Of a DNA stretch of 20,653 nt, positions 2,426 through 14,808 are shown piece by piece. The stretch comes from a phage. Below the pieces are notes generated by a model. It did not search any database and was not told the origin of the DNA. It was given only the letters and a program-made list of their open reading frames with translations. A program made the position numbers and the translations under genes. Location of the stretch: NCBI GenBank assembly GCA_024975835.1, contig GCA_024975835.1_4840.2; one strand, 5' to 3'. Within the stretch, counting starts at the first letter, position 1. Every line of letters begins with the position of its first letter.

Positions 2426-2751
2426 TGAAATGTAAAATCCTGCTCTTGTTGGTACTGATAGCCGGGTGTGTAAACGCCGCGCCACCGTCCAAACTGAACA
2501 CATGTGTGGCGTGGATGGAGACGTATCAGCAGTTCCACCCAGATGACAAAGATACATCTATCCTCCTGTCCGACTTCGAGGGAGAGCTGAAGCGCCTTGA
2601 TCTGTTCAGTGTTGATCAGATAGAGAATGCGCTGGATCTTCCCATGATGCTGACTGCGGCTGACAACAGTCCACAAACGAAGAAAGACCTGATGTATTGC
2701 CGGGGGATTGCCCAGGACTTTGTCGGATTTCAAAATAAAGTTTCGGGTTAA
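2425..2751 (+). CDS. putative lipoprotein (about 108 aa)
   Basis: MKCKILLLLVLIAGC carries a lipobox-like LIAG-C. AAGGAG lies 8 nt upstream of ATG 2425; the start overlaps the upstream stop (TGATG). Confidence 0.6.
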   Translation: MKCKILLLLVLIAGCVNAAPPSKLNTCVAWMETYQQFHPDDKDTSILLSDFEGELKRLDLFSVDQIENALDLPMMLTAADNSPQTKKDLMYCRGIAQDFVGFQNKVSG

Positions 2752-2772
2752 AATTTAGCCCTACATTGTGAA

Positions 2773-3657
2773 ATGAAGGAATACACTGTGATGCTCCTGA
2801 CCAAAACAATCGCTGCAGCGATTATCGAAAAGAATAAGGCTTTTGCCCCCAACGCAGCCAAAGTTATGTTGGTACACGAAGACGCTCGCGTGATCTTCGC
2901 CGAGAAGTTCGAGATGGGCGCGAAGTTCTGGTATGCCGACAACTTGCGTGAGAGCAAACTTCAGGGTATCATCCACAAACTGACTCTGGTCGCCAAGCGT
3001 AATGACCAGGGTGACTGGGTCGGCGTTTCTGACTTCAGTACGAAGATCACCCCAAAGGCTCCGCTTTCTCGTCAAGAGCGCATTCTGGAAGCCCAGGAAA
3101 AGCTGCGTGCGGCTCGGAGTACCCCAAAGGCGAAACCAGATGCAAGCCCTGTTATCAAGCCAGCGGTTGTTCCTAAGTCCAAATACCTCCCTCCCGTGAG
3201 TCAAAAGGCTGTGGAGCAATTGGTTGAGAAGCGCAAGGGTGACGTTGTGATGAAGTCTGACTCTTCAGTGGAGCCGTTCAAGCCGGATCCAGCAGAAGTA
3301 CAGGCGCTGGCAGAAAAGGTAAAGAATTCACAATTCATTTCCCTGCGTGAACTTGAACCGCCTACTCGCCGTCGTGTCGCCAACGAGCTGTTTGTGTCGT
3401 TCAGGTCGGATGGCAAGATCGTCCTGTGCAAAGCCCTGCGCGATGCAATCCCTTGGACAACTCTGAACATGATGGTCACTCGCGACTTCAAGCGTTTCGG
3501 TATCATGCAAGGCAAGGACTACAACGTCAACCAGAGCGGGACTTATGTTAATCGCGCCATGTGTGACAAACTGACCTTCCCAGAAGATACTGGAACGATC
3601 CGTGTCGTTCTGAACTGGGACGACAAGCTGAATATGTATGTTGGTGATTTCCAATAA
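2773..3657 (+). CDS. hypothetical protein (about 290 aa)
   Basis: Long ORF with a Lys/Pro-rich middle region. Start ambiguous between ATG 2773, GTG 2788 and ATG 2791; AAGGA at 2775-2779 favours one of the latter two. Confidence 0.55.
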   Translation: MKEYTVMLLTKTIAAAIIEKNKAFAPNAAKVMLVHEDARVIFAEKFEMGAKFWYADNLRESKLQGIIHKLTLVAKRNDQGDWVGVSDFSTKITPKAPLSRQERILEAQEKLRAARSTPKAKPDASPVIKPAVVPKSKYLPPVSQKAVEQLVEKRKGDVVMKSDSSVEPFKPDPAEVQALAEKVKNSQFISLRELEPPTRRRVANELFVSFRSDGKIVLCKALRDAIPWTTLNMMVTRDFKRFGIMQGKDYNVNQSGTYVNRAMCDKLTFPEDTGTIRVVLNWDDKLNMYVGDFQ

Positions 3658-7919: not shown

Positions 7920-7927
7920 TATTTATA
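7920..7927 (-). promoter_or_regulatory. T4-type late promoter box TATAAATA on the minus strand
   Basis: Plus-strand TATTTATA at 7920-7927 is the reverse complement of TATAAATA, positioned upstream of the minus-strand ATG at 7884. A gp55-like late sigma factor is encoded in this same window. Confidence 0.5.
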
Positions 7928-8468: not shown

Positions 8469-9260
8469 ATGGGAATGAACTTCGTGGACAGAGGGGAGAA
8501 TGTCGTCAAATATTTCACGGACGAAGACAACGAGCGTGTCATCAGTATCCTTCGTGATTGGATCCCTGCTCGTAAGAAGGCTCTGGCTGAAGGCACCAGG
8601 CTTCCAAAGATCCCCAACTATGTTGCTCTACAGGTCCAGCGCATCATCACCAAGATGAGTACCCGCTACAACTATCGCGACTATCCCTTCCGTGAAGACA
8701 TGGTCTCTGAAGCAATAGTCAACATCCTGCGCTACCTCCACACCTTTGACGTCGAACACATTGGAAAGAAAGGGAAGATCAACTTCTTCTCTTGGGTGAC
8801 CATGTGTGCTGATCGCTCATTTGCTCGTAAACTGAACATCGAAGAAGAGCACACGTACATTAAATTGCGCTCATTTGAAGAGGCGGGTGGGTTCGCAGGC
8901 CTGGCAGACGATCCCGACTTCCAACAAGAGATCTTTGTTGATGCTACAGGAATTGGCATGGACTTCCGTGAGCGTATCGGTAACTTTGAGAACAAAAAGG
9001 ACGCTCAAAGACAGAAGGAGCGAGAGAAGGTGGAGGCAGCTCGTCTCGCAGAATCGAATAAAAAGATTGCGAAAGGCATACTTCAATACATGGCGCAGGC
9101 TAAGAATACGGTAACAGCGCAGGCCGAAGACAATTCAGATCAGGACTTTGGCAAAACCCAATTCAATCTGGAAGATGATATCTGTGCGATGGAACCAGAT
9201 TGGGAAGCCCTCAAACAAAGATTAGAAGAACGGGAGAAAAAGAATAATGGCGATTGCTAA
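8469..9260 (+). CDS. gp55-like late-transcription sigma factor with extended charged C-terminal tail
   Basis: Pattern RYNYRDY...VNILRYLHTFD...NFFSWVTMCADRSFARKL parallels T4 gp55 as I recall it (RFNFSGY...LHNFD...YITQACFNAFVQRI). Protein is about 80 aa longer than T4 gp55, with a Lys/Glu-rich C-terminal region. Confidence 0.75.
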   Translation: MGMNFVDRGENVVKYFTDEDNERVISILRDWIPARKKALAEGTRLPKIPNYVALQVQRIITKMSTRYNYRDYPFREDMVSEAIVNILRYLHTFDVEHIGKKGKINFFSWVTMCADRSFARKLNIEEEHTYIKLRSFEEAGGFAGLADDPDFQQEIFVDATGIGMDFRERIGNFENKKDAQRQKEREKVEAARLAESNKKIAKGILQYMAQAKNTVTAQAEDNSDQDFGKTQFNLEDDICAMEPDWEALKQRLEEREKKNNGDC

Positions 9261-10362
9261 AATCGGCGATCTGCATATCGGGAGCCGTAATGGTTCCCGA
9301 TACGTTCGCGACTTCATCAAGAACTATCTCATCAATTATTTCATCCCTGAACTTGTCGACTCTGATATCAAAGAGGTCTGGCAGTTCGGTGATACGTTTG
9401 ATGTCCGCAAATTCATGTACGGGCGTGACAAGGACTGGTTGAAAGATGAGCTGACTCCGGCGCTGAAAGCTGCTGGGATCAAGTGGAATGGTATTGTTGG
9501 TAACCACGACATCACCCTGGAAGAGTCTAACCGCATCAACTGGCCATCCTACCTGAACGAACTCGACCCAGATGTGTACTGCTATTATAGCGAACCGACC
9601 GAAGTGATGATCGAGGGTGTCAAGACTCTGCTCCTACCGTGGATCAACAAGGAGAACTATGATGCGTCTATTAAGGCGATACAAGATACAGACGCCGAGT
9701 ACTGTTTTGCGCATCTGGAGCTGGCAGGGTTCAAAATGTACCAGTCCTCTACTTGTGATCACGGTCAGATCGACGTTGCGTTGCTTTCCAAGTTTACCAG
9801 GGTCGACACGGGACATTTCCATACCCGTTCGATGGAAGGTAACATTCAGTATCTTGGGACTCCGTATCACCTGAACTGGGAAGACTACAAAGATGGCACC
9901 AACCGTGGCTTCTATGTGGACGACATGCGCGGTGGTGAGGTCTTTATCCCGAACGCCGAGAATCAGACGTTGTTCCGCTATGTGGAATATGATTACACCA
10001 AGTTGTCCTCAGACGATGAGGGTAACTGGATCAACCCGGAATGGCTGAACACAGGCTTGGGTATTGAAGGGCAAATCGTTAAGGTTATTGTACAGAATCG
10101 CGACAATGCTAAGCATTATGAAAAGTTCTGTGATGCCATGAAGCGCTGTAAGTGCATTGACTACAACTTCATCGACCGGACTATTACCGTAGCGGCTGAG
10201 AAGGTTGAGGTCACCGAAGAGATGGTGGCAACCGACGCAGTGGAAGTCCTAAAGAAGGATATCCGCGCCGGGAACAACATCCAGCGCCCTGAAAACGTCT
10301 GCAAGCTGGCAGAGCACTTCTACAACGCTGCCCAACAACGTCTGAATACACTGGATGCATAA
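9247..10362 (+). CDS. gp47-like Mre11/SbcD-family recombination nuclease (calcineurin-like phosphoesterase)
   Basis: Phosphoesterase motifs GDLHIG, GDTFD, GNHD and GHFH, with N-terminal similarity to T4 gp47. Overlaps the gp55-like gene by 14 nt. Confidence 0.85.
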   Translation: MAIAKIGDLHIGSRNGSRYVRDFIKNYLINYFIPELVDSDIKEVWQFGDTFDVRKFMYGRDKDWLKDELTPALKAAGIKWNGIVGNHDITLEESNRINWPSYLNELDPDVYCYYSEPTEVMIEGVKTLLLPWINKENYDASIKAIQDTDAEYCFAHLELAGFKMYQSSTCDHGQIDVALLSKFTRVDTGHFHTRSMEGNIQYLGTPYHLNWEDYKDGTNRGFYVDDMRGGEVFIPNAENQTLFRYVEYDYTKLSSDDEGNWINPEWLNTGLGIEGQIVKVIVQNRDNAKHYEKFCDAMKRCKCIDYNFIDRTITVAAEKVEVTEEMVATDAVEVLKKDIRAGNNIQRPENVCKLAEHFYNAAQQRLNTLDA

Positions 10363-12700
10363 CATGACTCAAAGTACAGATATCCTGGCCAAATTTGGCA
10401 ATCTTTTGAAGGAAGCTGACACCCCGGTAGAGGTGGAAGTCCCATTTGAAGTGCGTGATAACGTTACGCACAAACTAACTTTCCGCAAAGGTCGTGCCAA
10501 AAACTTCCGTTCCATCGGCAATCAGTTCATGGAGATTGATTATCAGCGCAACCCAGCCACCCTTGTCACGTCTGATGACAACGGCGCGGGTAAATCCACG
10601 ATGTTGGTATGGCTGCTGTTCTTCGTACTGTACAACACCACGTACAGTAAGAAGGAGAAGAAGGCAGGCCTGGTTAACTCACAAAGCCGCAAGGAATGTG
10701 TGGGTGAGGTAGAGTTTGCCTGTCGTGGTAGTGAATGGAAAGTTCGCCGGGGTATCAAGCCCGACTTTGTTGAAGTCTACCAGATGGTGGACGGTAAGTG
10801 GTTGAAGATCGATAACGAAGCAGCCAAAGCCGACATGAACAAGTACATCGTGAATCTCATCGGTGTAGACCAGAAGATGTTTGAGAACTCTCTGGTGCTG
10901 GGCAAAGAGAAGTTCATTCCGTTCACGGAGATGTACACAGCCGACCGCCGCGCCATGGTGGAGACTATCTGGGACTTGGGCTTCTTCAGCCTGATGAACG
11001 AAGATGTCAAGGCATCCATCAAGAAAGCGAACGAAAAGCTGGACGCGATCGCGAATGAATGTGCGTTGAAGGTTGTTGACCACACCAACAAGAAGACGCA
11101 GCTACAGCAGATAGAGCGGTCCAATGCCCTTATCCAACAGCAGTCGGCCGATATCCTTGTGCAGCAACAGGAAGCCCTGACTTCCCTAGACGCTGACATC
11201 GCCGCCCAGAATGAAGAGCGCACCCGCCTCACTGCGGTTGAGTTCGAAGCCGCCCAGGAAATGAAGATAGTAGAAAGCCGCCTGCATGATGAATCCATGG
11301 TGGAGATCGATGCTGTCAAGAAAGACTTTGATGCCAAGATCCAGGCGGTGAAGGATGCCGCTCAGGAAAAGGCCGATGATTATGAGCGTATCGAAGTGTC
11401 TATTGCGGAGCATGATCTTCAGGTCTTGCGTGACCGCGCCTTTACAGTGGCCGAACGCAAGAACACCCTGCTCACCGAGCGCAACACAAACCTGGACGCC
11501 CTGAACGCTGCTATCCAGCGCCGTCAGCAGGGTGAGAACTTCCGTATCAAGTTCCAGACCGAAATGGATGGACATCAGTCGGCCATCAAGCGCTTCCACG
11601 ACATGGGGACTTGCCCAACATGTACCCAACTGGTGTCAGACGATACCAAGGCGCGTATTGAAAGCGAGTACAATCCTCAGATCCAGGAACTGCAGTCGAA
11701 GTTAGATCAACTGGACAAAGTTACCGCCGATATCAATGTCCTGATCGATGATCACAAGGCTCAGGACGATAAGTTGGTTGCTGACATTGCTGTGTTGGAT
11801 GCTGAACTGGATGCAATGCGCAAGCAGGCCGACGAAATCGTTGACAACATCAAGCAGCTGCGCCGTGATATTCAAGGTTTTCATGATGCCGCCACGATTG
11901 AGTGTAATTCGCTGAACCGTGAATGCCAACAGAAGATCCTTGACATCCGTAAGGCACTGAACGTTCGTTTTGAAGACATCACTGCGTCACTACAACAAAC
12001 TCGAGAGAATGCCGTCAGCGGGATTAAAGCCGTCGATGATAAGATCGCCGAGCTGAAAGCCCGTCGTGCTCCTCTCGTGGCGTCTATTGCCGATCTGGAG
12101 CGTAAACTGGCTGTACAGCCAACACCTACCACCGACCTGGAGAACTCTATCGCTGCGTTGGAAGGTGAACTGGAGTCTCTGTATGAACTCCGTGAAGATG
12201 CAGATGAGGAACTCCAGGACTTACAGCACCTGCTGTTCTTCTTGAAAGATGACCAGACCAAGGCGCGTATCATCGCCCTGTACTTGCCATTCCTCAATAG
12301 CAAGATCAACGAGTATCTTGAAGCCCTCAACATGTTCTTGGACATCGTTGTTGACGATACCTTTGAGATCACCATGAGCGCAGCAGGCCGCAAGGGACAG
12401 AGCATCTTCTCCCTGTCTACTGGCCAACGCAGTCGCCTGAACCTGGCTGTGACATTAGCTCTGCGCGATGTGGCTAACCTCAAGGCGTCTGTACAATGTA
12501 ACCTGTTCGTGCTGGACGAGATCCTTGAGAACATGAGCGAGCGCGGGGTGCAGGAATCGGTTGAGATGTTGAAGCATAAGTTCGGCGGGAACAACCTGTT
12601 TGTTATTAGCCAGCGCGAACAGGAGTTCCAGGAATACTTCCAACACAACATTCGCTACGGCCTGCGAAACGGCCTGACTGAAGTTATCAAGAAGGATTGA
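10355..12700 (+). CDS. gp46-like Rad50/SbcC-family ATPase
   Basis: Walker A DDNGAGKSTM, long coiled-coil middle, ABC signature LSTGQRSRLNLA, Walker B LFVLDE. Start is ATG 10355 or 10364 adjoining the gp47 stop; there is an N-terminal extension of about 35 aa relative to my recollection of T4 gp46. Confidence 0.85.
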   Translation: MHNMTQSTDILAKFGNLLKEADTPVEVEVPFEVRDNVTHKLTFRKGRAKNFRSIGNQFMEIDYQRNPATLVTSDDNGAGKSTMLVWLLFFVLYNTTYSKKEKKAGLVNSQSRKECVGEVEFACRGSEWKVRRGIKPDFVEVYQMVDGKWLKIDNEAAKADMNKYIVNLIGVDQKMFENSLVLGKEKFIPFTEMYTADRRAMVETIWDLGFFSLMNEDVKASIKKANEKLDAIANECALKVVDHTNKKTQLQQIERSNALIQQQSADILVQQQEALTSLDADIAAQNEERTRLTAVEFEAAQEMKIVESRLHDESMVEIDAVKKDFDAKIQAVKDAAQEKADDYERIEVSIAEHDLQVLRDRAFTVAERKNTLLTERNTNLDALNAAIQRRQQGENFRIKFQTEMDGHQSAIKRFHDMGTCPTCTQLVSDDTKARIESEYNPQIQELQSKLDQLDKVTADINVLIDDHKAQDDKLVADIAVLDAELDAMRKQADEIVDNIKQLRRDIQGFHDAATIECNSLNRECQQKILDIRKALNVRFEDITASLQQTRENAVSGIKAVDDKIAELKARRAPLVASIADLERKLAVQPTPTTDLENSIAALEGELESLYELREDADEELQDLQHLLFFLKDDQTKARIIALYLPFLNSKINEYLEALNMFLDIVVDDTFEITMSAAGRKGQSIFSLSTGQRSRLNLAVTLALRDVANLKASVQCNLFVLDEILENMSERGVQESVEMLKHKFGGNNLFVISQREQEFQEYFQHNIRYGLRNGLTEVIKKD

Positions 12701-12702
12701 TC

Positions 12703-12867
12703 ATGAACTACGAACAAATTAAACTCGCAATCCTGGTCTTTGCATGCATCATTGACATCATTGCATTTTCTCGTGAAGTCGAAAGGAAAAACTACCTGAA
12801 AGCACTGGGGTATCTCGGGTTCTCTGTCTGGTTCTGTTATCTACTTGCAGGTCAAATCCTGAAATGA
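12703..12867 (+). CDS. small membrane protein with two predicted TM segments (54 aa); absent from the ORF track because it is under 60 aa
   Basis: ATG 12703 lies 2 nt after the gp46 stop and the stop overlaps the next ATG (ATGA). Hydrophobic stretches IKLAILVFACIIDIIAF and LGYLGFSVWFCYLLAG read from my own translation. Confidence 0.4.
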   Translation: MNYEQIKLAILVFACIIDIIAFSREVERKNYLKALGYLGFSVWFCYLLAGQILK

Positions 12868-13193
12868 AAGTCGTCCACTTCAAGAAGGAGCCATATGACG
12901 TCTACATTGGTCGGCCTGGTAAATGGGGGAACCCGTTTGAGGTCAAAGACCATGGACGAGGCGTCTGTATCGAACTGTTTGAGGACGACCTGTATGTGCG
13001 CCTGATTGAAGGGGATATCACTGAGGATGAACTCCTTGATCTTGACGGGAAGGTATTGGGGTGCTGGTGTAAGCCGCGCCCCTGTCACGGAGATGTTTAC
13101 GTCAAAGTCATTGGTCGTATTAAACTATTCCGCAAGCTGGGTAAATCCTTTACTGAACACCTGAGACAAACATATGTCAGAATCAAAAGATGA
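12864..13193 (+). CDS. conserved protein with GNPF and CWCxPxxCHG motifs (I believe the DUF4326 family)
   Basis: Motifs WGNPF and CWCKPRPCHGDV in a roughly 110-aa protein. Family assignment is from memory of the motif pair and is not database-verified. Confidence 0.55.
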   Translation: MKVVHFKKEPYDVYIGRPGKWGNPFEVKDHGRGVCIELFEDDLYVRLIEGDITEDELLDLDGKVLGCWCKPRPCHGDVYVKVIGRIKLFRKLGKSFTEHLRQTYVRIKR

Positions 13194-13458
13194 TATCCAA
13201 GACTCCTGTGACATTGCGGTTGAAATCTGGAACCGTCGGAACCCGCATTACCAGGTGACCGTCACGCCAAATCGCTACCTTGAGCAGGGCGGTTTGATTG
13301 TTGTTGATGCTGTACTTGCGTTCAACAAGTACACCGACATGCAAATCCTGGACGGCAACTTCACTGTCGCGACCAAGACGGCTTGGGATGACCCGATGGA
13401 GTTTGTCTATGGCTGGCTGGAATGCATCGAGGAATCCTACCACCTCATCTATGAATGA
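13174..13458 (+). CDS. hypothetical protein (94 aa)
   Basis: ORF overlapping the upstream gene end by 20 nt. No motifs recognised. Confidence 0.5.
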   Translation: MSESKDDIQDSCDIAVEIWNRRNPHYQVTVTPNRYLEQGGLIVVDAVLAFNKYTDMQILDGNFTVATKTAWDDPMEFVYGWLECIEESYHLIYE

Positions 13459-13463
13459 GGCTG

Positions 13464-13497
13464 AAGGGCACTAAATATCACGTGCCCTTTATCTTTT
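13464..13497 (+). terminator. hairpin plus T-rich tail, candidate intrinsic terminator
   Basis: AAGGGCAC-(10-nt loop)-GTGCCCTT followed by TATCTTTT, a few nt after the stop at 13458. Confidence 0.55.
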
Positions 13498-13555
13498 AAC
13501 ACCTGTCAGGAGGCTCAAGCGAGCTGCAAGTCGACAAAACATAAGGAACGCCATC

Positions 13556-14170
13556 ATGACGATGACAACGTTGAAGGCCATGGCCTTGTCCGTGACCTTT
13601 ACCATTGCCAGCGGGAATGTGCACGCTTCCCAAAGTACCACCCAATGTGATTATAATTTCTCCGAGCAACAACTCAATACACTGGCAACCGCCTATCACG
13701 TAGGCAAGACACAAGATCTTGGCTACACTCTGGCCGCCATATCTTGGCGAGAGAGCCGCGCTGGTGAAGATGTAGTGTCAATGCGATACGGCCTCAAGGC
13801 GGCCAACATGGGAGCCTTTCAGAACAAGGTGAAGACAGTTGGTGATCGCGAAGGTTGTAAGAATCGCAAGTGCTATGCCAATGTCGCCATAAAGTTGCTG
13901 ACCGACCAAGAATATGCCGCGCAAGCCGCCCTCGATGAGATGCAGTTCTGGCTGACCTATCACAATCAGAATATCCGCAAATCCCTCTCCTCTTACAATG
14001 CTGGCTTCGCCCGTAATCCCGCATCGAACGCGTATGCTGCCGACGTCGTGAAGAAAGCTAAATATCTTCAGAAATGTGTGTCCTTCGAAGGCCGGACCAT
14101 CTCCGAGGTAGATCCTCAGGTGATCGCCATGAACAAGCACACAATAGAGAAACTGAAGAGGACAAGATAA
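13556..14170 (+). CDS. SLT-domain lytic transglycosylase-like protein with N-terminal signal or SAR-like segment
   Basis: Order of motifs SWRES...GAFQ...SYNAG mirrors family-1 lytic transglycosylases (ES...GLMQ...AYNAG). N-terminus LKAMALSVTFTIASGNVHA is hydrophobic and Ala/Ser/Thr/Gly-rich. AAGGAA lies 8 nt upstream. Confidence 0.6.
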   Translation: MTMTTLKAMALSVTFTIASGNVHASQSTTQCDYNFSEQQLNTLATAYHVGKTQDLGYTLAAISWRESRAGEDVVSMRYGLKAANMGAFQNKVKTVGDREGCKNRKCYANVAIKLLTDQEYAAQAALDEMQFWLTYHNQNIRKSLSSYNAGFARNPASNAYAADVVKKAKYLQKCVSFEGRTISEVDPQVIAMNKHTIEKLKRTR

Positions 14171-14808
14171 TGAACATCACTCCATCTCAGGCCGGATATG
14201 AACATATCTTGGTCTTCATTGCTCTACAGGGTGCGAAGGAAGGCATCATCGTATCCGAGTACTCAGGCACGGTTCGCCTTGCTGATTATGTCGCGCCAGA
14301 GGCGTTCATTAAGAAGTGTATTGACGCATGGTGCCTCTATGCCCTCAGCACATACCCTGCTCCTCCTGAGGGTGAGCTGTTGTTTACTGTGCCGACTCCG
14401 GCTGTTGGCGATACAGACGCGATCTTTGCCGATATGCTGACCAAGGGGTATCTGGTGTATGACCTCACCCACGATGTCTACTCCTTTACTTCGCTGAACA
14501 CCGTGTTTGGATTCACCATCACATCTGAAGCCAACATCCCTGACTGGGGTATCTTGGCTTGGGGTGTTGACGGTCTGGGTGCAACCTACGCATCGTCTGA
14601 CGTCGGTGCGGTTCTGATTGATGAGGGTGTCACCATGGAGCAGTACCTTGCCCAGTTCCCTCAGCACAATATCACAGGCAGCGACATCATTTTGGTCCAG
14701 CCTGGCGCTATCGCTCTCCCCCGTTTGGTGGATGGATGGAATCCTCGGCTGAAGGACATCATCGCAGGTATTCGGTCCCACATTCCGGTTGTGAATCCGA
14801 CGCCGTAA
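14170..14808 (+). CDS. hypothetical protein (about 212 aa)
   Basis: ATG 14170 within track ORF 14074..14808, overlapping the upstream stop by 1 nt (TAATG). No motifs recognised. Confidence 0.6.
   Translation: MNITPSQAGYEHILVFIALQGAKEGIIVSEYSGTVRLADYVAPEAFIKKCIDAWCLYALSTYPAPPEGELLFTVPTPAVGDTDAIFADMLTKGYLVYDLTHDVYSFTSLNTVFGFTITSEANIPDWGILAWGVDGLGATYASSDVGAVLIDEGVTMEQYLAQFPQHNITGSDIILVQPGAIALPRLVDGWNPRLKDIIAGIRSHIPVVNPTP

Follow-up and report, generated by a model that had tools for sequence, protein, structure and literature searches.

DUF4326 is one of the larger uncharacterized protein families in phages, and a classification paper devoted to it was published by Burroughs and Aravind in 2023 (NAR Genom Bioinform, lqad029). 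The present analysis concerns a member of this family, and the two small genes that accompany it, in a stretch of phage DNA of 20,653 nucleotides (nt) (contig GCA_024975835.1_4840.2 of the NCBI GenBank assembly GCA_024975835.1), the whole of which is referred to here as the window. In silico work assigns DUF4326 to the rhodanese-phosphatase superfamily, as part of its RapZ-C/DUF488/DUF4326 branch (PMC7824862, PMC9503650). Iyer et al. predict an enzyme that connects NAD+-based signaling with DNA modification, and propose that it processes the terminal ribose phosphates in ADP-ribose or its breakdown products (PMC7824862, PMC9503650). Fusions of NADAR domains to DUF4326 have been reported in giant viruses (PMC7824862), and a 2025 preprint describes amoeba-virus homologues of ORF83, a SLOG-like anti-Avs protein, that bear a C-terminal DUF4326 domain. 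With regard to gene neighborhoods, islands of genes for single-stranded DNA-binding protein (SSB), methylases and anti-restriction proteins have been described in the leading regions of conjugative elements (Samuel et al. 2024, PMC11541004).

The DUF4326 protein and its family

The 109-amino acid (aa) product of the gene in the window is certainly a member of DUF4326. It matches the Pfam hidden Markov model (HMM) PF14216 with a score of 82.6 bits against a cutoff of 25, and residues 3–79 align with positions 3–80 of the 82 in the profile. This settles the family assignment of a first-pass annotation of the same DNA, made from its letters alone, which had picked out a protein with GNPF and CWCxPxxCHG motifs and believed it to belong here. 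The two motifs are WGNPF at residues 21–25 and CWCKPRPCHG at residues 67–76. The likeness to T4 NrdA.1, which is also a DUF4326 member, includes the full-length HMM match and the GNPF and CxCx4CHG motifs, with 41% identity to the window protein over 78% of the protein. Labels in databases that call DUF4326 genes ‘NrdA-like ribonucleotide reductase’ derive from the T4 gene name nrdA.1 and not from homology with NrdA, and were set aside. Like most members, the window protein stands alone and has about 100 aa. Tandem DUF4326 domains (two or three) occur in some proteins (P0134–P0139), for example in a 352-aa protein that matches the domain over three stretches.

Across 149 diverse members of the family, the only invariant residues are C67, C69, C74, and H75 (C-x-C-x4-C-H, in the numbering of the window protein). 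A further set, D12, R17, W21, G22, N23, P24, R32, G66, P71, and G76, is conserved in at least 90% of these representatives. The window protein has all of the family-invariant residues plus D12, R17, W21, G22, N23, P24, and R32. It is basic, with an isoelectric point (pI) of 8.9. An AlphaFold2 (AF2) model, with a predicted local distance difference test (pLDDT) score of 95, folds it as a small alpha/beta unit, in which a strand (64–67) ends at C67 and is followed by a loop (68–74) and a helix (75–91) that begins at H75. Structure prediction had been suggested in the first pass as a route to the active site, and the model does offer a candidate site around C67–H75. A C-terminal extension of ∼25 aa (helix 96–108) is common only to the Ackermannviridae copies.

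The domain was described at the outset as widespread, and this holds on a large scale. When 1.84 billion cluster representatives (clusters at 50% identity) were searched with a profile, 24,661 members were recovered at E ≤ 1e-3 and 10,804 at E ≤ 1e-10. Searches with tblastn found a DUF4326 copy in 2,171 of 50,697 phage records, T4 among them, or ∼4% of the phage genomes deposited, and the domain is also present in many bacterial and archaeal genomes. An established chemistry for DUF4326 would allow annotation of very many ‘hypothetical proteins’, and might reveal a new DNA-end or ADP-ribose processing step in the conflict between phages and their hosts.

Gene neighborhoods and domain fusions

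The association of DUF4326 with the genes of a recombination nuclease, seen first in the window, recurs elsewhere. DUF4326 follows gp46, the SbcC (Rad50)-like ATPase gene, in all five of the Ackermannviridae lineages examined (Kuttervirus, Agtrevirus, Limestonevirus, Klebsiella phages that are Taipeivirus-like, and the Erwinia lineage Nezavisimistyvirus). Furthermore, the order SbcD-SbcC-DUF4326 of the window is repeated in an unrelated viral contig (L046). In L046 (5630–6838, − strand), which is AT-rich, there is a TnpB/Cas12f-like gene at a distance of 320 bp downstream; among the neighbors of DUF4326, TNB domains of the Cas12f1-like type were found twice.

A wider viral sample comprised 50 non-redundant loci outside Ackermannviridae, in which the genes within two positions of DUF4326 were scanned with Pfam. 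The raw counts, which carry no background normalization and are suggestive only, include DNA methylases (4), SbcC/Rad50-like proteins (3), Toprim/primase (3), and two each of Metallophos, 5′-3′ exonuclease, YqaJ, MCM, dUTPase, and SLOG/YAcAr. Ribonucleotide reductase (RNR), Rnl1, an RNA-repair HAD domain, and a cyclic-phosphate-processing receiver domain were each found once. Closer links are seen in individual loci. For example, a 5′-3′ exonuclease gene stands directly 5′ of DUF4326 in one of them (L032), another encodes a fusion of DUF4326 with a 5′-3′ exonuclease (L089), and a third a fusion of DUF4326 with SLOG (L035). The 149 representatives contain fusions to RNase H, RRM, DprA-like, and LOG-like domains, with SLOG/YAcAr in 2 of the 149. 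In one metagenomic phage, consecutive genes encode Rnl1, a P-loop kinase, DUF4326, DNA ligase, and Rnl2; in a second, a DNA ligase gene lies 3 kb upstream, and the gene directly downstream is RNase T-like (a faint Pfam match).

The cellular sample consisted of 56 non-redundant bacterial and archaeal loci, and ORFs (open reading frames) that overlap the DUF4326 gene were excluded from the clustering of neighbors. Counted in the same raw manner, the neighbors include SSB at 11 loci, SLOG/YAcAr at 6, RadC at 5, ArdC-N at 4, and the TrwC relaxase at 3. Cellular DUF4326 genes therefore resemble the leading-region islands (PMC11541004) in lying beside SSB, ArdC-N, RadC, and TrwC. However, DUF4326 is present on only 52 of 72,556 plasmids in PLSDB, mostly non-mobilizable, compared with the 2,171 phage records, and it does not appear in the supplements of PMC11541004. 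A place among plasmid leading-region genes was rejected as unsupported by these two sources. Each of the patterns of context (the linkage to gp46; the FEN, RNase H, ligase, and SLOG associations; SSB, RadC, and ArdC; and the adjacency to a 94-aa gene described below) points to a concrete experiment.

Proposed role and alternatives

DUF4326 is most likely a DNA- or nucleotide-directed auxiliary or counter-defense enzyme, with a chemistry that we infer. The first-pass annotation had arrived at a nucleic acid- or nucleotide-directed role, possibly anti-defense, and this fits both the published in silico predictions and the contexts described above. In the proposed mechanism, the active site would be formed by the strand-end C67-x-C69-x4-C74-H75 together with D12, R17, N23, and R32. 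Its substrate would be a phosphate- or ribose-linked group on DNA ends, on single-stranded DNA, or on nucleotide or ADP-ribose-type moieties. The enzyme would serve as an accessory factor in DNA protection, repair, or counter-defense, made together with the end-processing nuclease of the phage early in DNA metabolism, and mobile elements would produce it while their own DNA replicates, recombines, or becomes established. The contexts with Rad50/Mre11, FEN, RNase H, ligase, and SSB favor a version in which the activity is directed at nucleic acid ends, to which we give a probability of roughly 40%.

Membership of the rhodanese-phosphatase superfamily is plausible as judged from the AF2 model, which has the strand-Cys-loop-helix arrangement of that superfamily. 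In this respect, PF22751 (‘Active DUF488-N3 subclade’) is the only second Pfam family that DUF4326 members match recurrently; the matches are sub-threshold, in 13 of 53 and 28 of 149 members (best E 0.006), and cover the half of the domain with the Cys motif. DUF4326 differs from the superfamily in that it has three invariant Cys and a His, not one catalytic Cys.

Several observations weigh against an enzyme of this type acting on DNA or nucleotides. The superfamily link was not reproduced by Foldseek, which found nothing in the PDB with E < 1 for the model, or by profile HMM searches of PDB sequences with DUF4326 profiles, which gave chance matches only. Comparisons in hhalign with E. coli YeaO (DUF488-N3; as a single sequence and as a profile), RapZ, and YbiA gave no match. 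The classical CX5R arginine is absent, because R72 in the Cys loop varies across homologues (K, Q, L, M, E); the conserved R17 and R32 lie elsewhere in the sequence. The four invariant Cys/His residues could equally form a zinc site. The neighborhoods are heterogeneous, and genes of DNA metabolism are common beside any early phage gene. In T4, the homologue is in a nucleotide-synthesis cluster, between td/nrdA.2 and nrdA, and not by genes 46/47, whereas the window copy follows gp46. Within Ackermannviridae, the neighboring 94-aa gene is retained where DUF4326 is deleted. Finally, the searchable literature on DUF4326 consists of in silico predictions, with no biochemical or genetic data for any member, in agreement with the first-pass statement that no function has been established experimentally.

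A tentative alternative, with a real chance of being correct, is that DUF4326 acts on diffusible small molecules derived from NAD+ or ADP-ribose and not on DNA, removing a terminal phosphate. It would then quench or recycle signaling or by-product nucleotides of host immunity, along with SLOG/LOG, Macro, or NADAR enzymes. Links to these three domain families favor such a substrate, and it is the explicit prediction of Iyer et al. The connections with SLOG/YAcAr comprise the L035 fusion, the 2 of 149 members along with the LOG and DprA-like fusions, and 6 of the 56 cellular loci, and the ORF83 homologues of amoeba viruses with their C-terminal DUF4326 belong with them. However, no SLOG, Macro, or NADAR gene adjoins DUF4326 in the window or in the Ackermannviridae relatives inspected, and no Macro or NADAR fusion is present among the sampled viral loci and the 149 representatives. 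The resemblance to NADAR itself amounts to a hint: DUF4326 differs from YbiA-like proteins in showing no sequence-profile signal for this family, and none of 202 DUF4326 members matches the NADAR HMM (PF08719).

It is also conceivable, but unlikely, that C-x-C-x4-C-H is a structural or redox zinc site, and that DUF4326 is a non-catalytic accessory that binds nucleic acids or proteins, such as a modulator of gp46/gp47, SSB, or exonucleases. Strict invariance among the 149 members is indeed limited to three Cys and one His that fall within nine positions, the small size and basic charge of the protein would suit such a role, and fusions to many different nucleic acid enzymes would be expected of a generic binding module. 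Against this, the near-invariant polar residues D12, R17, N23, and R32 lie outside the Cys cluster and are typical of a catalytic pocket, and the weak matches to the Pfam family of an ‘active’ DUF488 subclade point the same way. Moreover, C74 and H75 are adjacent, and it would be unusual for two such residues to coordinate one zinc ion.

A role as an auxiliary of deoxynucleotide synthesis, in the form of a thiol relay or a phosphatase for RNR or thymidylate metabolism, is very unlikely. It would account for the position of nrdA.1 in T4, for a locus with NrdA-NrdB-DUF4326 (L034), and for dUTPase, ThyX, and guanylate kinase genes near other members; arsenate reductases of the same superfamily use three-cysteine relays. 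Yet DUF4326 is not beside RNR in Ackermannviridae or in most of the sampled loci, the ‘NrdA-like’ labels go back to a gene name, and the cellular contexts are of the SSB/RadC/ArdC type and not those of nucleotide synthesis.

The gene string in the window

The window is a piece of the genome of an Ackermannviridae phage (Vi1-like; Aglimvirinae-like). Bases 12400–13700 are 95.3% identical to Escherichia phage vB_EcoM-RPN242 (Aglimvirinae) and match 272 phage records at ≥80% identity, with hosts that are nearly all Salmonella, Klebsiella, Escherichia, Dickeya, and other enterobacteria. The records inspected among these matches are all Ackermannviridae, except one that has no assigned family. The arrangement in vB_EcoM-RPN242 is identical, with all three small genes annotated as hypothetical. 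In Salmonella phage SilasIsHot they are labelled ‘putative membrane protein’, ‘putative DUF4326 domain-containing protein’ (gp66), and ‘hypothetical protein’. The original finding in the window is thus correct, yet not new; near-identical genes had already been deposited in close relatives, some of them labelled as DUF4326, so that the window itself adds little novelty.

Table 1. Features of the gp55-gp47-gp46 gene string and the adjoining downstream region, in window coordinates.
Feature	Position	Strand	Matches and remarks
Late sigma factor gp55	8469–9260	+	
gp47 / SbcD (Mre11)-like nuclease subunit	9247–10362	+	phrog_100, E = 1e-107; weak Metallophos match
gp46 / SbcC (Rad50)-like ATPase subunit	10355–12700	+	phrog_77, E = 1e-162; SMC_N, E = 1e-10
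54-aa basic protein, two hydrophobic helices	12703–12867	+	ATG start; phrog_34593 end to end, E = 1e-40
109-aa DUF4326 protein, T4 NrdA.1 homologue	12864–13193	+	PF14216, E = 3.2e-23; phrog_464, E = 2e-45
94-aa acidic protein (pI 4.3), Ackermannviridae-restricted	13174–13458	+	phrog_4165 (unknown function), E = 3e-50
Intrinsic-terminator-like hairpin and T-rich tail	13464–13497	+	Fold energy, stem conservation
Conserved intergenic leader of next gene	13498–13555	+	Second invariant hairpin ∼13504–13536; AAGGA ribosome-binding site
SLT/Vs.1-like protein with signal peptide	13556–14170	+	

The three small genes are the 3′ tail of a co-oriented gp55-gp47-gp46 string (Table 1), and all three ORFs were recovered directly behind the Rad50-like gene, as first reported. 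The junctions were said to overlap throughout. This is true of two of them, with an ATGA overlap (12864–12867) between the 54-aa ORF and the DUF4326 gene and a 20-nt overlap (13174–13193) between the DUF4326 gene and the 94-aa ORF. At the first junction there is no overlap: the TGA of gp46 ends at 12700, and two bases separate it from the ATG of the 54-aa ORF, which has an AAGGA Shine-Dalgarno sequence on its 5′ side. The packing suits translational coupling, and the string ends at a conserved predicted terminator. The ratio of non-synonymous to synonymous substitution (dN/dS) is 0.04–0.06 for the DUF4326 gene, 0.06 for the 94-aa gene, and 0.23–0.37 within allele classes of the 54-aa ORF, and purifying selection on all three marks them as genuine genes.

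Exact T4-type late-promoter motifs, TATAAATA, occur in the window only at 18308–18315 (+) and 7920–7927 (−), against a chance expectation of 0.2; the first of these stands just 5′ of an ORF at 18341–18661. None lies between 7920 and 18308, as would be expected if the gp55-gp47-gp46 string is not a late unit. A scan of 12000–14500 with Rfam gave no match above chance, and no PADLOC or NCBIfam model matched any of the three products.

The 5′ part of the DUF4326 gene (12864–13061) has 100% DNA identity to the Escherichia/Salmonella phages YX22, LHE287, and CECAV_050. The best megablast matches of the 94-aa gene (13174–13458) are in Dickeya Limestoneviruses, at 93.7%. These different best relatives suggest recombination within the gene pair, that is, local mosaicism.

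Variation behind gp46 in Ackermannviridae

The content of the slot behind gp46 differs between relatives. In Dickeya phages, Shigella phage MK-13, and Kutterviruses of the SFP10 type, gp46 is followed by an extra 102-aa ORF and then by the membrane ORF. Kuttervirus BPS6 has both of these and a further 122-aa ORF between DUF4326 and the 94-aa gene, and extra ORFs are also inserted in Kamild. The DUF4326 protein of BPS6, a Salmonella phage (L009, 1653–2331), has the substitution D12N at a near-invariant position and an altered C-terminus, and may be a decaying copy. No membrane ORF follows gp46 in Klebsiella phage KFM-TASP06. In CBA120 (L003, 3573–4020) and STML-13-1, a deletion has removed the membrane ORF together with ∼80 codons from the 5′ end of DUF4326, and has left a C-terminal remnant of 28 codons that overlaps the start of an intact 94-aa gene. 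Kutterviruses of the CBA120 type have instead a basic 102-aa ORF (orf117) directly after gp46. Deletion in the CBA120-like phages identifies DUF4326 as accessory and dispensable.

A different arrangement is found in Erwinia phage phiEa2809 (L011, 2664–3318), where the pair consists of two overlapping genes, unannotated in RefSeq, in swapped order. A 105-aa homologue of the 94-aa protein (2693–3010; hhalign probability 94%, E = 1e-7) lies 5′ of a 102-aa DUF4326 protein with a GTG start (3001–3309), and the two genes overlap by 10 nt.

Since each of the three genes is absent independently in relatives, they are not an obligate unit. It is accordingly most improbable that they form one obligate system, either a membrane-anchored effector with its inhibitor or a holin-like lysis element: the tight packing with overlapping start and stop codons, a RefSeq ‘holin’ label in MK-13, and the SLT-like next gene with its signal peptide would suit it, but the losses are separate (the membrane ORF in the Klebsiella and Erwinia lineages; DUF4326 in CBA120, with the 94-aa gene kept), extra ORFs split the genes in Kamild and BPS6, a terminator parts them from the SLT-like gene with no late-promoter motif nearby, and the low GC of the membrane ORF suggests a separate origin.

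The 94-aa protein as a candidate partner

The 94-aa protein was first described as an orphan, and remains one to the extent that it has no match in Pfam, NCBIfam, or PADLOC and a PHROG family (phrog_4165) of unknown function. It is predicted to fold as alpha-beta3-alpha (pLDDT 92). Between alleles, the proportion of non-synonymous differences (pN) is 0.09, compared with a saturated proportion of synonymous differences (pS) of 0.87–0.89. The C-terminal stretch W71–S88 is conserved, with every residue invariant except I85, and the protein contains an invariant helix, WDDPMEFVYGWLECIEES.

The gene is the most faithful neighbor of the DUF4326 gene. The 94-aa protein is found in 278 phage records, and the N-terminal 66 residues of DUF4326, at ≥80% identity, in 233. 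Because adjacency is kept in whichever order the two genes stand, the 94-aa protein probably acts as a partner of DUF4326 or modulates it. Its persistence without DUF4326 in CBA120-like phages indicates that it is not solely a DUF4326 cofactor and has some independent value.

A more speculative and rather doubtful extension of the proposed role is that DUF4326 and the 94-aa protein together form an unrecognized counter-defense or DNA-repair module. Mobile elements would deploy it on incoming or replicating DNA, where it would remove a phosphate, phospho-ribose, or ADP-ribose-type block left by immunity. If true, removal of the block would let the phage Mre11/Rad50 nuclease, flap exonucleases, and ligases proceed, and a family of over 24,000 sequence clusters, T4 nrdA.1 included, would gain its first biochemical function.

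The 54-aa membrane protein

The smallest of the three products had been described as a two-helix membrane protein, and the sequence does contain two hydrophobic stretches, at residues ∼7–23 and ∼34–52, with maximum Kyte-Doolittle values of 2.9 and 1.6 over 15 residues; its match to phrog_34593 runs end to end. It has a pI of 8.7, and its gene has 41% GC compared with 48–51% in the neighboring genes, which suggests a separate origin. The ORF is annotated or detectable in 38 phage records, 26 of them at 92–100% identity and 12 at 40–48%. These correspond to two allele classes that are 41–47% identical, both of 54 aa and both with two hydrophobic stretches, between which pN is 0.38 and pS 0.82. 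Conservation in related phages, on which the first-pass annotation had let its reading of this ORF depend, is therefore found in these records. The ORF was not found in the Klebsiella and Erwinia lineages, and is thus conserved but accessory. The membrane protein is an accessory insertion that is independent of the pair formed by DUF4326 and the 94-aa protein.

RefSeq labels the homologue in Shigella phage MK-13 (NC_049455) as ‘holin’. This reading was rejected from the context of the ORF, despite its two hydrophobic helices: the ORF is placed in the gp47-gp46 string, in the region free of the late motif, the C-terminus of the protein is AGQILK, and the ORF is missing from the Klebsiella and Erwinia relatives.

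An unannotated 38.5-kb record, OR844944.1 (‘Enterococcus phage Efm 3-10’), is 88% identical to this Ackermannviridae region and includes the membrane ORF, with 94% identity at the protein level; mislabelling or contamination is the probable explanation.

The predicted terminator and the downstream gene

A terminator had been proposed to close the gene string, and a conserved hairpin is present at the expected place. An 8-bp stem (13464–13471 / 13482–13489, AAGGGCAC / GTGCCCTT) with five G-C pairs encloses a 10-nt loop, 6 nt past the stop codon, and the tail TATCTTTT runs to 13497. The fold has a predicted energy of −17.4 kcal/mol (z = −2.6). Six phages from three genera preserve the stem, and the only changes in it are from A-U to G-U. 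From its sequence, the hairpin has the features expected of an intrinsic terminator, namely a GC-rich stem followed by a U-rich tract, 3′ of the last gene. A consensus terminator scanner missed it because the loop limit of the scanner is 8 nt.

The whole intergenic stretch (13459–13555) has a mean column identity of 95% across Kuttervirus, Limestonevirus, and a Klebsiella phage, in contrast with the flanking 94-aa protein, which is only ∼40% identical in the Klebsiella phage. The second hairpin within it contains GTCGAC, and this part may serve the SLT-like gene as a promoter or leader element. The product of that gene has 204 aa with an N-terminal signal peptide, a sub-threshold match to SLT (lytic transglycosylase), and a match to phrog_600. 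Several GenBank records label this downstream gene ‘RegB endoribonuclease’, which looks erroneous for a protein that is SLT/Vs.1-like and has a signal peptide; the CBA120 record notes the similarity of its homologue to T4 Vs.1.

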